Assembly (NCBI GenBank): GCA_000989525.1
Contig: LBON01000006.1
Span: 7,914 to 71,913 of the forward strand
Source of the DNA: a candidate division TM6 bacterium GW2011_GWF2_32_72
GTDB lineage: Bacteria; Babelota; Babeliae; Babelales; GWF2-32-72
Reading direction: 5' to 3'
DNA: 64,000 nt
Shown here: positions 3,277 through 63,140 of the stretch, one piece after another
Numbering within the stretch: the first letter of the stretch is position 1
Layout: the number at the start of each line of letters is the position of its first letter
Translations under genes and position numbers: made by a program
Notes under the pieces: model-generated
Seen by the model: the letters and a program-made list of their open reading frames with translations, nothing else
The model's database searches: none
Told to the model about the DNA's origin: nothing

Positions 3277-3483
3277 GGACTCGATCCTTCGACTGAAGGT
3301 AATAGCTCTTCATGAACAGGCTGATGACATCCGTCTTTATTTTTATTTCTAACTCAATATTAAAAATTTAAAAATCTAATTTAACAACAGTTTCATATTT
3401 AAAGCCTACAGAGGCTAGAACAACTCAATAAAATATAAATTAATATGACGGATGTCATCCTGAGCTAGTCGAAGGATCGAGTC
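3277..3483. mobile_element. MITE-like inverted-repeat element, copy 1 (short form, no outer ends)
   Basis: Left arm ggactcgatccttcgac...gatgacatccgtc (3277-3325). Right arm gacggatgtcatcctgagctagtcgaaggatcgagtc (3447-3483). The conserved interior ends aaaatataaattaatat. Flanked by ttataa on both sides. Confidence 0.85.
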
Positions 3484-3529
3484 ATTATAAAAAACAATTG
3501 TTTTTTGCAAGCAAATACGCCTTTACTTT

Positions 3530-3907
3530 ATGCATTTAACAATTAAAATATTATCTTTTAGATCACATATATTCAAAGGCCATGCTGTGAAACAGTTTTT
3601 TGTTTACATTCTTAAATGTCGTTGTGGAAAATTTTACACAGGATTTACATGCAATTTAGAAAGGCGGTTGAGTGAACATAACCAAGGCCTTTGTGAATAT
3701 ACAAAAGAAAGACTCCCTATTACTCTTGTCTTTCATCAAACCTTTCCCTCAATGCATGAAGCTTTTTGCGCTGAACAAAAAATTAAAGGATGGAGCCGAG
3801 ATAAAAAGAAAGCTTTAATAGATAAAAACTTTGATCTCTTATGTATTCTTTCTAAACCTGTCAAAGCTAAAAACAACTTTTTAATAAAGACTCGATCCTT
3901 CGACTAG
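3530..3907 (+). CDS. Small GIY-YIG (URI-domain, COG2827/UPF0213-like) nuclease
   Basis: ORF 125 aa. FFVYILKCRCGKFYTGFTCNLERRLSEHNQG ... AEQKIKGWSRDKK matches the GIY / YxG / R / E / W-R-KK pattern. An in-frame GTG at 3587 would give the usual short N-terminus. The last 6 codons plus TAG (3889-3907) come from the arm of repeat copy 2. Confidence 0.8.
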   Translation: MHLTIKILSFRSHIFKGHAVKQFFVYILKCRCGKFYTGFTCNLERRLSEHNQGLCEYTKERLPITLVFHQTFPSMHEAFCAEQKIKGWSRDKKKALIDKNFDLLCILSKPVKAKNNFLIKTRSFD

Positions 3908-4124
3908 CTCAGGATGACATCCGTCTTTATTTATAACTATTTTTTTGATTATTCTTTCACATCTAAAACGACTATTTAAAATATTTATCGCTATTTATAA
4001 AAATAGCCTCGATCTTAAAACTAACGAAGGATCAAATCAGTTCAAAATTATAAATAAAGACGGATGTCATCCTGAGCCAGTCGAAGGATCGAGTCCTCTT
4101 TTAAATAATTTTTGTATAAACTCT
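3889..4124. mobile_element. MITE-like inverted-repeat element, copy 2 (divergent interior, outer right end present)
   Basis: Left arm gactcgatccttcgactagctcaggatgacatccgtc (3889-3925). Right arm gacggatgtcatcctgagccagtcgaaggatcgagtcc (4059-4096), then the outer end aataatttttgtataaactct. Track ORF 3945-4142 is only a read-through of these arms. Confidence 0.8.
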
Positions 4125-4164
4125 AAAGTTATAAATTTTTGATGTGATCTCTTTTTTTTTCGAT

Positions 4165-4258
4165 TGATGTATAAAAAACAAAGTAAGTTTTGATAAGAAA
4201 TGTATAAAAATCAAAGCAAGTTTTGATCATTTATGTATAAAAATCAAAGTAAGTTTTG
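4165..4258. repeat. Three-unit 33-nt-period tandem repeat
   Basis: Units atgtataaaaa(a/t)caaag(t/c)aagttttg start at 4167, 4200 and 4233. Each has a small atcaaa/tttgat hairpin. The repeat lies just 3' of the stop (4270) of the minus-strand paralog and beside the right end of MITE copy 2. Confidence 0.8.
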
Positions 4259-4269
4259 GTAGAACCAAA

Positions 4270-60533: not shown

Positions 60534-60866
60534 AGAACTTTTACAAAATCCAAAAACACTGATTTTTCATATCAAAAAAGGACTCGATCCTTCGACCAGC
60601 TCAGGATGAAATCCGTCACATTAATTTATATTTTATTGCGGTGTTCTAGTTCTGTAGCCTTAAACTATGTGATTATTATTAAATTTTTAACATCTTAACT
60701 GAATCAGGAAATAAAAAGAAAGACGGATTTCATCTTAGTATTGAATTAGAAATGATGTCTTCTACGGCATAAACTTTGTTTGTTCCTAAACTTTTCTAAT
60801 GATGTTCACTGATTGTTAATAAAAATAACGTCGAAGGATCTAGTCCTTTAAATAATCTTATAGGCC
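60534..60866. mobile_element. MITE-like inverted-repeat element, copy 10 (carries a private ~95-nt internal module; right arm truncated)
   Basis: agaacttttacaaaatccaaaaacactgatttttcatatcaaaaaaggactcgatccttcgaccagctcaggatgaaatccgtc... An internal gacggatttcat is followed by cttagtattgaattagaaatgatgtcttctacggcataaactttgtttgttcctaaacttttctaatgatgttcactgattgttaataaaaata and then only gtcgaaggatctagtcc. Confidence 0.88.
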
Positions 60867-60881
60867 CTTAAAACAAGTCGC

Positions 60882-60911
60882 CCAGGTTAAGCAACTTTGA
60901 ACTTAACCTGG
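60882..60911 (-). terminator. Candidate terminator hairpin of the 587-aa gene
   Basis: ccaggttaag / cttaacctgg 10-bp perfect stem with a 10-nt loop, 31 nt after the stop at 60942. The T-run on the minus strand is displaced (gcgacttgtttt). Confidence 0.4.
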
Positions 60912-60941
60912 ATACTTTTATTCACCAATTATCAATTCTTT

Positions 60942-62705
60942 CTATTCACCAGTTTTTCTTTTTTTAATAGAAGCTTCAGCAGCTTTTTTATCAACCTCAT
61001 CCCAATCTATTTTTTCAAGGTCGCTTTCATCTAAACCTCTTTTAAAAGACGGCCTCTTCTCTTCCAACGGCATCATTTCTTCCATCGACTTAAGAGTTTG
61101 TACAAAATCTTCTTTCCATTTTTTAAAGTCCTCTTTCATCTTTTTAGATTTTTCAGAACCCTCCAAACTTACTGGGTATGGTCCATGTTCTTGTAAAAAC
61201 AACTCCCATTCTTGTTTTAATGTTTCTTGCCTAATTTTAGCTTTATCGTCTAATTCAACAGGCCTTTCTATTTCTTTTTTCTCCAGAATTGGACCTCTCA
61301 CAAAATTTTCTGACGCTTCACTCTTTTCTATCCAATGGCCAGATTGTCTTTGCCAAGCAATCCCTGTATCCTTACAAGGAACATCCTCTTTTACAAACTC
61401 ATTCAAACGTCTAAGAGAATGCGCCCTATCAGAGGTCACGCGATTCAAGCCACCATTGTCAATCCAGTCCGCCATCATTAAGTTAAATTCTTCATTAAAT
61501 TCTTTTTGGAAATTATCTTTTGCCTCTTTGGTTAGCTCATTTAATCTATATTCAAATATTTTTACACCTATTTCTGGATTAAAGAACTCCGATAAAAGAA
61601 CAATACGCACTTGAAGTTGATCAAGCAATCCATCAAATTTATTTTCAAGATGATGCGGTTTATTTTTAAAACTTAAACCAAAAATTACTATTTTATCTTG
61701 ATTTTCTCTCATGCATTTTTCATCTTTGCATACAATTATATTCTTTAAATCAATTTCTAAAACGGTACCCATCAGATATGCATCAAGAACATCTGATATT
61801 CTTGGATGCCGTTTTTTTGCTTCATCAAAACTGCCAACTAATTTACAACGATAAGGGGTTCCAAAAGAATGCGAAAGATAAACAAAATCATTAACCTTGG
61901 TTTTTGGAATAAATATTTGATACAAAACACCGCCCTTGCTTGAGCCGTAATATTTTTTCCAAATTGAATTTAGTTTATCAATTTTACTTTCCAACAAACC
62001 AATAGATTCGGTAAAAAGCTTCAGCTTCTGAATTATTTTAGCATCAACACTTTTTTTACGTAAAAACATAGAAAAAGATGAATTGGACCACCTTGAATTA
62101 TTACCAAACAAAGTCAAATTAACTGAAAGTAAATCTTTTTTTATGCACCCTAAACTGTCATCCCAGTGACCATCTTTAAATATTTCTTTTTCCCAATAAT
62201 CTATAAATTGATCCTGTGTTATAAATTGCTGCGATACCTCTTTTTTAGGTCTAAACCAAGAAAAATCTTTTGTATGTATTTGTTCATTCACCAGATTTTC
62301 AAACATAGTATAGATTTTAAAAACAAAACCTAAATCTGAATTACCACCATGATAAAAAACATAGTAATCTTGAAAAAATTCCTTTTCGCGCTGCAAAGCT
62401 TTTTCTGCTACTGCAATAATTTTTTGGTCCTCGCCTACGGGCTTCCTATCACCAAGTATAGAAATCATCTCTGCTGGCGAATGCTTTCCAAAAAGCGTCA
62501 TATGTTTTTCTGAAATAGTTTGGCTTTGCAACTGTTCAGAAATATTTTTAACATTTTTCCTGCTCTCTTTATCTTGTTGCTCTTGTTGAAACTCAATATT
62601 TACAGCTCGTTTGTTCAATATATCCTGAGTTCTAGGTAAATTGCTACCCATAATTTGAAGCTGAACACCCAACAAAACCACAAGAGCTAAAAATAATTTC
62701 TTCAT
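60942..62705 (-). CDS. Secreted protein, unknown function (bracketed by two near-identical repeat copies)
   Basis: ORF 587 aa with signal peptide MKKLFLALVVLLGVQLQIMG. No recognisable catalytic motif. The charged C-terminal region ends ...AAEASIKKRKTGE. Confidence 0.8.
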   Translation of the reverse strand: MKKLFLALVVLLGVQLQIMGSNLPRTQDILNKRAVNIEFQQEQQDKESRKNVKNISEQLQSQTISEKHMTLFGKHSPAEMISILGDRKPVGEDQKIIAVAEKALQREKEFFQDYYVFYHGGNSDLGFVFKIYTMFENLVNEQIHTKDFSWFRPKKEVSQQFITQDQFIDYWEKEIFKDGHWDDSLGCIKKDLLSVNLTLFGNNSRWSNSSFSMFLRKKSVDAKIIQKLKLFTESIGLLESKIDKLNSIWKKYYGSSKGGVLYQIFIPKTKVNDFVYLSHSFGTPYRCKLVGSFDEAKKRHPRISDVLDAYLMGTVLEIDLKNIIVCKDEKCMRENQDKIVIFGLSFKNKPHHLENKFDGLLDQLQVRIVLLSEFFNPEIGVKIFEYRLNELTKEAKDNFQKEFNEEFNLMMADWIDNGGLNRVTSDRAHSLRRLNEFVKEDVPCKDTGIAWQRQSGHWIEKSEASENFVRGPILEKKEIERPVELDDKAKIRQETLKQEWELFLQEHGPYPVSLEGSEKSKKMKEDFKKWKEDFVQTLKSMEEMMPLEEKRPSFKRGLDESDLEKIDWDEVDKKAAEASIKKRKTGE

Positions 62706-62807
62706 TAAATTTTCCTTTTTTAAAAACAGTTAATAACTTTTTAAAATGTTAAATTATGCGTAATCAAAAAAGCAACAGATAAGAATAATAAGAAGAAGAA
62801 GAAGAAG

Positions 62808-63140
62808 AGCTTATGCGAACATTATTTAAAGGACTCGATCCTTCGACAAGCTCAGGATGAAATCCGTCAATTAATTTATATTTTATTGCGTTGTTTTAGC
62901 GCTGTAGCCTTAAACTAGGTGGTTATTATTAAATTTTTAACATCTTAACTGAATCAGGAAATAAAAAGAAAGACGGATGTCATCTTAGTATTGAATTAGA
63001 AATGATGTCTTCTACGGCATAAACTTTGTTTGTTCCTAAACTTTTCTAATGATGTTCACTGATTGTTAATAAAAATAAAAGGATCGAGTCCTTTTTTTGA
63101 TGTAAAAAATCAGTGTTTTTGCTTTTTTGTATAAGTTCTA
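62808..63140. mobile_element. MITE-like inverted-repeat element, copy 11 (same private internal module as copy 10, same orientation)
   Basis: gagcttatgcgaacattatttaaaggactcgatccttcgacaagctcaggatgaaatccgtc... An interior stretch of about 165 nt differs from copy 10 at one position that I could see. The right end is aaggatcgagtcctttttttgatgtaaaaaatcagtgtttttgcttttttgtataagttct. A GAA run (62791-62809) precedes it. Confidence 0.88.

Follow-up and report, generated by a model that had tools for sequence, protein, structure and literature searches.

Composite intergenic palindromes of a TM6 bacterium and their link to a cross-phylum hairpin found beside small GIY-YIG nuclease genes

The published systems closest to the repeats described here are the pairings of Ssn nucleases, single-domain GIY-YIG proteins of ~94 aa, with Ssn-related motifs (SRM), which include the Neisseria NTS/dRS3 repeats (Chenal et al. 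2025, Nat Commun 16:2388, PMC11893778). Proteins are assigned to the Ssn nucleases by membership of CDD cd10448 or by E<1e-10 to N. meningitidis SsnA (NMV_0044/NMB0047). The nuclease recognises its hairpin when the DNA is single-stranded, not otherwise, and makes its cut a short way upstream; the motif has been described by the pattern HGTCWYN(0-2)YYVSBRHN(0-5)WNVSBRGN(0-2)RNCYNB; Dependentiae go unmentioned in that paper (PMC11893778). Other points of comparison are the REP/REPIN/BIME repeats with their RAYT (TnpA-REP) partners, and bacterial MITEs such as Correia, RUP and the Rickettsia palindromic elements. The Neisseria NIMEs, an account of which is attributed to Parkhill et al. in 2000, are reportedly RS units flanked by dRS3 repeats.

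We analysed a 64-kb stretch of DNA (the window) from the candidate division TM6 (Dependentiae) bacterium GW2011_GWF2_32_72, a symbiont-type bacterium with a reduced intracellular genome. The original prediction was of a layered, MITE-like inverted-repeat family of 11 copies plus remnants. Inverted-repeat pairs at each claimed copy (32-102 nt, 80-97% complementarity), motif counts, the sequences themselves and a scan with six sub-motifs, which returned no copies in the window beyond those listed below, confirm 11 palindromic copies and one decayed remnant at 51226-51362. The copies are non-coding and 170-420 bp long; every member is intergenic, and the family takes up 5.4% of the window. The core GGACTCGATCCTTCGAC is matched 23 times at ≤3 mismatches (0.02 expected in the window), the 23-nt pattern ATCCTTCGACNNNCTCAGRATGA occurs exactly 13 times (0 expected), and the outer end CTTATACGAAAATT is matched 16 times (2.2 expected). 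A core match at 27943, inside tRNA-Arg, is a chance match and not a family member. The features are as follows.

3277..3510, minus: copy 1; interior reversed, no outer ends; left arm 3277-3335, its hairpin loop enlarged by a 27-nt insertion; right arm 3447-3484, followed by a long-linker remnant
3530..3907, plus: ORF of a single-domain, Ssn-like GIY-YIG nuclease, between copies 1 and 2
3868..4125, unstranded: copy 2; arms 3888-3925 and 4058-4096, right outer end 4107-4123, left side without an outer end; interior unlike the family's
20099..20515, plus: copy 3; outer ends 20132-20148 and 20495-20511, partial extra outer end 20099-20115; double-unit arms 20175-20276 and 20390-20491, each a long-loop hairpin plus a standard hairpin; its end is overlapped by the stop codon of ORF 18890-20131
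30224..30624, minus: copy 4; interior reversed, its tail iterated in tandem; outer ends 30224-30240 and 30608-30624; left arm 30247-30285, double-unit right arm 30495-30578
34357..34640, plus: copy 5; left outer end 34357-34373, none on the right; left arm 34381-34419, degenerate right arm 34603-34640
35529..35784, minus: copy 6; interior reversed; two outer ends; arms 35553-35591 and 35699-35736
42940..43194, minus: copy 7, in the gap between tRNA-Ser and crcB; interior reversed; two outer ends; arms 42964-43001 and 43112-43149
43614..43919, plus: copy 8; degenerate outer ends; left arm 43638-43675, double-unit right arm 43800-43882 containing a long-loop hairpin
48759..48929, unstranded: copy 9, a short variant; arms 48783-48821 and 48891-48929 around a 70-nt unrelated interior
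51226..51362, unstranded: decayed remnant; degenerate arm and outer end 51336-51352; no other member of the family lies between divergent genes, on their promoter side
60534..60846, plus: copy 10; degenerate left outer end, long linker, left arm 60580-60618; right arm reduced to 60828-60846, right outer end absent
62807..63138, plus: copy 11; left outer end 62807-62823, left arm 62831-62869; right arm reduced to 63078-63091, then a long linker and outer end 63122-63138

The anatomy was read from the copy sequences and a 10-copy alignment. Arms consist of one or two hairpin units, either 5'-(G)TCAT-CC-TGAGCnnGTCGAA-GG-3', so that TM6 arms carry GTCAT-CC-TGAGC, or a long-loop form, TGAGTGA[inner hairpin]TTGTATCGAA. 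The predicted layering, with or without a linker, holds, the linker being either a short ATTTAAA or a long CAAAAACACTGATTTTTTACATCAAAAAA. So does the placement of a 45-nt module, which copy 3 has in its two arms and copies 4 and 8 on the right alone; this module is a second, long-loop hairpin type, and shares its TGAGTGA...TTGTATCGAA frame with the hairpins flanking the GIY-YIG genes at a locus of a different organism (L253). Half-arms (GACGRATGTCAT), also foreseen, lie inside copies 4, 5, 10 and 11. The conserved, AT-rich interior, running from CATATTAATTTATATTTTATTG... to ...TTAGAAATAAAAATAAAGAC, is present in nine copies and does occur in both orientations (5 forward, 4 reverse); its polarity is fixed and its conservation across the alignment equals that of the arms.

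A further 17-nt terminal repeat, GARCTTATACGAAAATT, caps the elements and is flanked by TA, with similarity stopping abruptly beyond it. The proposal that the terminal repeats carry such outer ends stands on the 16 matches given above, yet does not extend to every copy, since copy 1 has none and copies 5 and 10 are without the right one. Of 13 outer ends, 12 have a TA ≤1 nt from GARCTTATAC. This TA is palindromic and may belong to the repeat; as it reads alike on both strands, duplication of a target is indistinguishable from a longer terminal repeat, the two alternatives that had been allowed from the start.

The arm core is a degenerate version of a hairpin with a covarying stem and a conserved loop, TGAGCYTGTCGAA. 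Its motif is present at more than 120 loci of genome contigs from many phyla (Alphaproteobacteria, Verrucomicrobia, Chloroflexi, Acidobacteriota, Bacteroidota, Nitrospirota, Elusimicrobia and Patescibacteria) and in at least 120 IMG/VR contigs. In a set of 85 instances that owed nothing to the search pattern, 38 show five or more Watson-Crick pairs around the loop, and the stems covary (CATGG/CCATG, CATGC/GCATG, CGTCC/GGACG, CACCC/GGGTG). Canonical hairpins give folding z-scores of -4 to -6; single TM6 arms alone are weak hairpins, with z about -1.7 as DNA. The commonest arrangement is that of inverted doublets spaced by 17-50 nt. In a sample that was partly pattern-selected, the 5' TCAT at -6..-3 is conserved at 89-94%, against 53-85% at the complementary 3' positions; the hairpin is thus oriented, with a non-palindromic 5' box conserved beside the stem. 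A search of Rfam over 26 loci from other phyla found no family that covers it.

According to Pfam scans, the sole nuclease- or transposase-like gene of the window is the GIY-YIG ORF, which matches PF01541 alone (residues 23-93). Its true start is likely the GTG at 3587, from which the predicted product opens with MKQFFVYIL as in homologs; the product from there is ~106 aa, its tail being encoded by the arm, and homologs are 90-125 aa. The frame continues into copy 2's left arm, where a TAG in the hairpin loop ends it. The inverted arms that bracket the ORF (3447-3494 and 3878-3925; 48 nt, 96% complementary) are the best-matched inverted pair. The solved structures nearest to the protein are the UPF0213 proteins 1ZG2 (E 6e-14) and 1YWL (E 5e-11), and no NCBIfam model matches it. 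Two-sided flanking by arms is not nuclease-specific in the window, being seen also at crcB, ORF 34799-35494 and ORF 60942-62705.

The association of gene and hairpin recurs elsewhere. Hairpins lie within ~130 nt of the GIY-YIG gene at 9 of 10 other independent homolog loci (L240, L242, L253, L254, L257, L258, L259, L260 and L262), or 10 of 11 with the window locus, for a chance expectation of 0.02 per kb; they are often two-sided and inverted. On 50 kb of a Sphingomonas replicon, five of six hairpins are ≤900 nt from the GIY-YIG gene. C-terminal peptides that translate the motif are found in 38 of 120 homologs (0.6 expected), with ends such as SSTSSD, PSTSSG, FDKLSLT and LRQAQ.... A cross-phylum hairpin with covarying stems, tightly linked to GIY-YIG genes, is established, as are the TM6 family and its anatomy. 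The core of the terminal repeats is not the private end of a transposon but a hairpin module of many phyla that accompanies GIY-YIG genes.

With the Ssn/SRM systems this locus shares a small single-domain GIY-YIG protein of ~90-100 aa and oriented hairpin repeats beside its gene, in many cases on either side; the repeats are scattered intergenically and expanded in symbionts, both kinds of hairpin bear a conserved 5' (C)GTCAT-type box beside the stem, and NTS-like SRMs occur at the same loci as the TM6-type hairpin. The TM6-type hairpin differs in having either a conserved 13-nt loop or a long one that encloses an inner hairpin; in TM6 itself it also sits within 170-420 bp composites that have an oriented interior and an outer terminal repeat. 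The published SRM pattern has no match in the window or at any of the GIY-YIG loci, whereas the Neisseria NTS itself does match. REP/REPIN/BIME repeats and RAYTs are similar in that short hairpins, dispersed over intergenic 3' regions, occur in mosaic arrays and as inverted doublets with the capacity to pair into long hairpins, and that the repeats flank a nuclease gene which is rare and single-copy. However, the TM6 partner is a GIY-YIG nuclease and not an HUH/Y1 transposase, the conserved part of the repeat is the loop plus the 5' TCAT box, Pfam finds no Y1_Tnp domain in the window ORFs, and the arms are without a GTAG tag. NIMEs likewise hold non-coding, swappable modules between inverted copies of a nuclease-associated hairpin repeat, although hairpin, interior and outer 17-nt repeat all differ, and the TM6 elements are single units, not long arrays. 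The bacterial MITEs resemble them in size, terminal inverted repeats, TA-flanked ends, multiple intergenic copies and a reduced, intracellular host, but the window yields neither a transposase nor a cognate IS, and many phyla have the arm core, which is not derived from a local IS.

Since the arms are the cross-phylum hairpin that lies beside the GIY-YIG gene, the family is placed as a variant of the Ssn/hairpin-repeat system, with Ssn/SRM, REP/REPIN/BIME and NIME, and not as an ordinary transposon relic of the classical, IS-derived MITE kind. Our preferred reading of the elements is as inverted doublets of the REPIN/BIME/NIME kind, made from a new class of SRM-like hairpin and supplemented by outer ends and a conserved, oriented interior. 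That they are composite intergenic palindromes whose arm hairpin is the repeat partner of a small GIY-YIG nuclease, in an Ssn/SRM-type architecture, seems to us the probable explanation, if by no means a secure one. Inverted doublets around the AT-rich oriented interior, capped by the 17-nt repeat next to TA, would allow the whole element to fold as a long hairpin or cruciform, as REPINs do. We infer that the TM6 nuclease recognises the arms in single-stranded DNA, and that the elements may have been spread by it, or by hairpin-hairpin recombination, rather than by a DDE transposase. They would have multiplied in the 3' regions of genes, where they may be tolerated or may serve as terminator-like structures. 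We know of no cut-and-paste or copy mechanism for any Ssn protein, and both the mobility of the elements and the role of the nuclease are put forward here as inferred. Several points count against this explanation: the mismatch to the SRM pattern, UPF0213 proteins as the nearest structures, the weakness of single TM6 arms, the non-specific two-sided flanking, and the distinct, sharp outer ends with flanking TA, which resemble the substrate of a classical transposase and for which a hairpin nuclease offers no explanation. A variant that we regard as unlikely is that the TGAGC..GTCGAA-loop hairpin and its GIY-YIG protein form a second, separately evolving pair outside the SRM definition, possibly nearer to UPF0213 than to cd10448, and that the nuclease of this pair mobilises the TM6 composites.

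The description MITE-like remains apt for the inverted ends, the size, the absence of coding capacity, the many copies, the modular build and the decayed remnants, but not for the core, which is no lineage-specific transposon end. A classical MITE, that is, a deletion derivative of a TA-targeting (IS630/Tc1-mariner-like) IS with a DDE transposase, mobilised in trans and carrying the hairpins as passengers or subterminal binding sites, would account for the separate outer repeat, the abrupt loss of similarity and the nearby TA; size, absent coding capacity and decay all fit, as does a 12th copy on an unrelated contig (L229; 88-90% identity). Yet Pfam scans of the ORFs detect no transposase domain in the 64 kb, copies 1 and 2 (the latter on its left side) keep arms without outer ends, and an arm core common to phyla with GIY-YIG genes is not expected of a private IS end. 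As TA is palindromic and frequent in a genome of 32% GC, no true duplication is demonstrated, and we find this origin improbable.

We give less credence again to the idea that the host maintains the elements as immobile structures, whether bidirectional terminators, mRNA 3' stabilisers or insulators, and that recombination or gene conversion alone has spread them. The distribution of elements in the window suits such a role: they fill 6 of 8 convergent junctions and 5 tandem ones but 0 of 8 that are divergent, and several start 0-12 nt after a stop codon. Long stems are also possible between arms. A simple terminator scan is nevertheless silent except for one site in copy 8, the mid-arm triplets of an element's two arms differ in 6 of 9 copies, and there is decay, as in the remnant and the truncated arms of copies 5, 10 and 11. 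Family members are also absent from three distant Dependentiae loci, in which synteny is not kept; among the nearest relatives, the closest other UvrB is only ~73% identical. Least credible of all, and in our view very doubtful indeed, is a reading of the interior as the gene for a small RNA that the inverted repeats enclose and carry. The interior's arm-like conservation and fixed polarity would agree with this, as would a weak promoter-like site, ATGACA-17-TATTTT, which recurs where arm meets interior, but the count of such sites falls below shuffle expectation. The orientation of the interior is independent of neighbouring genes, copies 2 and 9 hold unrelated interiors, and the sequence is AT-rich with tandem iterations. 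Nor is it recognisable as a known RNA family: Rfam at gathering score returned only five tRNAs in the whole window and no family covering the elements, and at a permissive E≤10 nothing credible over copy 4.

These results extend the Ssn/hairpin-repeat pairing to a hairpin class that the published pattern misses, despite its presence in many phyla and viral contigs, and to Dependentiae and a composite, MITE-like architecture. They offer a candidate enzyme and substrate, namely the product of 3587-3907 and either strand of GACGGATGTCATCCTGAGCTAGTCGAAGGATCGAGTCC, and with it a possible new specificity for the ssDNA-nuclease toolbox. They also bear on whether such repeats multiply by a nuclease, a borrowed transposase or recombination; should the nuclease mobilise the composites, DNA transposition that is GIY-YIG-driven and MITE/REPIN-like would be seen in bacteria for the first time. 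The results account as well for tails such as SSTSSD, PSTSSG and FDKLRMT on small GIY-YIG or hypothetical proteins, a frequent artefact of annotation. Two other assemblies are of the same strain, and in other assemblies the site of copy 5 breaks or is misjoined.

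The TM6 elements are layered palindromes whose parts recur in the window far more often than chance allows. The arm core GGACTCGATCCTTCGAC has 23 matches at three or fewer mismatches (0.02 expected), the 23-nt pattern ATCCTTCGACNNNCTCAGRATGA has 13 exact matches (0 expected), and the outer end CTTATACGAAAATT has 16 matches (2.2 expected). Inverted-repeat pairs of 32–102 nt were found at every copy claimed in the original prediction, and a scan with six sub-motifs revealed no additional copies in the window; the family takes up 3.5 kb (5.4%) of the window. Checking the layers on individual sequences and on a 10-copy alignment, we see the outer end, short or long linker, core and internal half-arms that had been described, the optional 45-nt module in both arms of copy 3 and in the right arm of copies 4 and 8, the oriented interior in both directions (five forward, four reverse), and the decayed copy at 51226–51362. 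The proposed iteration of a ∼25-nt unit is paralleled by 26-nt chained units in L240, one of the loci (L-numbers) fetched from other genomes for comparison.

Outside (T)TA-GARCTTATACGAAAATT the similarity between copies ends abruptly, and 12 of the 13 outer ends have a TA no more than 1 nt away. Since TA reads the same on both strands and there is no empty site, a TA duplication is inseparable from a longer terminal repeat. The sole outer end without a preceding TA is the left end of copy 11, which adjoins an (AAG)n microsatellite (62786–62806). A partial second outer end, CATGTACGAAAATT, is present at 20099–20131 within the 3′ end of the ORF at 18890–20131, whose stop codon, TAA, overlaps with the end of copy 3; from the sequence, this element may have supplied or reshaped the C-terminus of the encoded protein.

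Every copy is intergenic, and several start 0–12 nt past a stop codon. Copies occupy six of eight convergent junctions, five tandem junctions and none of eight divergent junctions, the decayed remnant alone lying in a divergent one. One of the two convergent junctions without a TM6 element, between the genes at 37277–40777 and 40869–42065, holds a 36-nt near-perfect palindrome (40789–40861; 97%, 1-nt loop) that looks like a bidirectional terminator. At 46955–47005 there is a separate local inverted repeat, ACAATGACATC...GATGTCATTGT, with a GTCAT box and no hairpin loop motif; site 46963, considered as a further element remnant, was rejected as this unrelated local hairpin.

Elsewhere, a metagenome scan with the 16-mer GACTCGATCCTTCGAC gave matches that were nearly all due to chance, the one genuine extra copy being a twelfth full copy on an unrelated contig (L229, 88–90% identity). 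Inside copy 5, two further assemblies of this strain are broken or misjoined (L001 4294–4499 and the end of L002), and so the family fragments short-read assemblies of this genome. TM6-type elements are absent from three loci of other Dependentiae (60 kb around uvrB), from which we conclude that the composite elements are a lineage-specific expansion. In the UvrB comparison, the closest non-self protein is 73% identical.

A domain scan found no transposase domain among the window ORFs. The ORF at 43153–43620, between copies 7 and 8, was considered as a RAYT-like transposase and ruled out, as it encodes the fluoride channel CrcB; copies 7 and 8 bracket crcB in the same inverted-arm layout as is seen at the nuclease gene that the domain scan identified:

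3530–3907: single-domain GIY-YIG ORF, between copies 1 and 2

Rfam shows no fluoride riboswitch upstream of crcB. The GIY-YIG reading frame continues into the left arm of copy 2, where its stop codon falls within the hairpin loop. Of all inverted pairs in the window, the two arms around this ORF match best (96% over 48 nt). The closest solved relatives of the protein are UPF0213 proteins, and tblastn of phage records returned distant GIY-YIG genes alone, at 37–45% identity.

The arm core is found beyond the TM6 genome, as the 23-nt pattern occurs in many phyla. It is present in at least 120 loci of a species-representative genome collection (Alphaproteobacteria, Verrucomicrobia, Chloroflexi, Acidobacteriota, Bacteroidota, Nitrospirota, Elusimicrobia, Patescibacteria and others), and a related pattern is present in at least 120 IMG/VR contigs. 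In the loci from other phyla the motif is a hairpin with a conserved 13-nt loop, TGAGCYTGTCGAA, and a covarying stem: among instances that lie outside the selection imposed by the search pattern, 38 of 85 have at least five Watson–Crick pairs, and alternative stems include CATGG/CCATG, CATGC/GCATG, CGTCC/GGACG and CACCC/GGGTG. Canonical hairpins fold with z of −4 to −6 relative to shuffles. The 5′ TCAT beside the loop-side stem is 89–94% conserved, compared with 53–85% for its 3′ complement. Inverted doublets 17–50 nt apart make up the most frequent layout, and some hairpins form tandem arrays. The TM6 arms are slightly degenerate versions of this hairpin, GTCATCC-TGAGCTAGTCGAA-GGAT(C)GA; single arms fold weakly alone, and the stable structure in TM6 is that of one arm paired with the other.

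Rfam has no family over either the cross-phylum hairpin or the TM6 elements, and the motif found no match in the literature on RIME, REP and CGTC-tagged repeats or by exact sequence or peptide. We rejected readings of the motif as RNA (CsrA-binding, hammerhead, k-turn, T-loop) because the stems covary away from GGA. The sole hint of this kind is a weak 19-bit CsrB-like match on one tandem array. Half-hairpins are arrayed as GAAGCTTGTCGAAG ×8 upstream of a Nitrospirota GIY-YIG gene (L258 2863–2975), and GGCCTTCGACAGGCTCAGGATGAG arrays also occur, the array loci being L258, L030, L080 and L106.

Homologs of the nuclease are linked to the same hairpin in other genomes. C-terminal peptides that translate the motif (SSTSSD, PSTSSG, FDKLSLT, LRQAQ..) are found in 38 of 120 homologs, compared with 0.6 expected from shuffled tails. 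For homologs without such tails, DNA was fetched from Ignavibacteria (L240), a further lineage (L241–250), L251–253, Bacteroidota (L254, L257) and Nitrospirota (L258); further loci came from Alphaproteobacteria (L259, L260) and from a Dependentiae relative met by chance (L262). Hairpins of this class lie within ∼130 nt of the GIY-YIG gene at 9 of 10 loci (10 of 11 including the window), often on both sides and inverted, against 0.02 per kb expected by chance. At L257 the distances to the gene are 15 nt on the upstream side and 8 nt on the downstream side, and in 50 kb of a Sphingomonas replicon five of six hairpins are within 900 nt of the gene. The gene-flanking hairpins of L253 and the 45-nt module share exactly the same frame, TGAGTGA-(inner hairpin)-TTGTATCGAA. 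In one of the three other Dependentiae loci, a degenerate hairpin precedes a GIY-YIG gene whose product ends in PSTSSG. At L252/L253 there are two 95-aa GIY-YIG genes at a distance of 2.9 kb, and doublets of the same long-loop hairpin flank each gene on either side, an arrangement that points to duplication of the gene and its hairpins as one unit.

The linkage runs one way. No GIY-YIG gene was found near the hairpin in 0.88 Mb of motif-selected loci in a first test, nor, by HMM, in 2.0 Mb of loci chosen by hairpin alone or in another 0.75 Mb of loci that had matched by chance. Thus the gene has adjoining hairpins, while most hairpins have no gene nearby, the same asymmetry as in RAYT/REP systems, where repeats mostly lack a nearby gene.

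A published counterpart is the Ssn family of single-domain GIY-YIG proteins (∼94 aa, CDD cd10448), encoded by genes that have hairpin repeats, termed SRM, on their flanks, the Neisseria example of an SRM being NTS, which contains dRS3 (Chenal et al. 2025, PMC11893778). SRMs occur at 71% of Ssn homolog loci, on both sides in 42%; the enzymes bind the hairpin as ssDNA only and cut upstream of it, and symbionts are enriched among SRM-rich genomes (PMC11893778). The same authors remark on the IS-like NTS-ssnA-NTS layout and its likeness to RAYT/REP/BIME (PMC11893778). By its sequence features, the TM6 locus fits with this kind of system. However, the published degenerate SRM sequence, which does match NTS, has no match in the window or in any GIY-YIG locus examined. 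NTS-like SRMs co-occur with the TGAGC..GTCGAA hairpin in some loci, and therefore several hairpin classes share genomes. Canonical NTS-like hairpins (CGTCATTCCCGCGAAGGCGGGAATCCAG type) were seen in unrelated phyla at L054 1182–1209, L063 7007–7034, L107 3540–3567, L011 6120–6147 and L298 3812–3842.

The elements had originally been interpreted as a MITE-like family. That repeat family is there, and its outer ends are indeed MITE-like, but the arms belong to an SRM-like hairpin class that is common to many phyla and linked to a GIY-YIG gene, and hence the interpretation is supported only in part. We read the TM6 elements as REPIN/BIME/NIME-like inverted doublets of this hairpin class that surround a conserved interior and are capped by outer ends of MITE-like type. 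On this reading the TM6 nuclease would recognise the element arms in ssDNA and might have a role in spreading them. The main alternative, of lower probability, is a MITE driven by a DDE-transposase, favoured by the separate outer repeat beside TA; less likely still are that the elements act solely as structural terminators and that they encode an sRNA. Read as SRM-like doublets, the elements represent a variant of the Ssn/SRM-type pairing, with a hairpin class that the published SRM sequence misses.

The window has a GC content of ∼32% throughout and contains the housekeeping genes uvrB, hisS, polA, leuS, ATP synthase and lon. Eukaryote-like proteins are encoded at 2572–3267, 4270–6318, 7397–11778 and 50563–51138, comprising one protein with a SET domain, three paralogous WD40 beta-propellers and a protein with a WH2 (actin-binding) motif. 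Such proteins are typical of protist symbionts, and the set is compatible with a protist-associated Dependentiae lifestyle.
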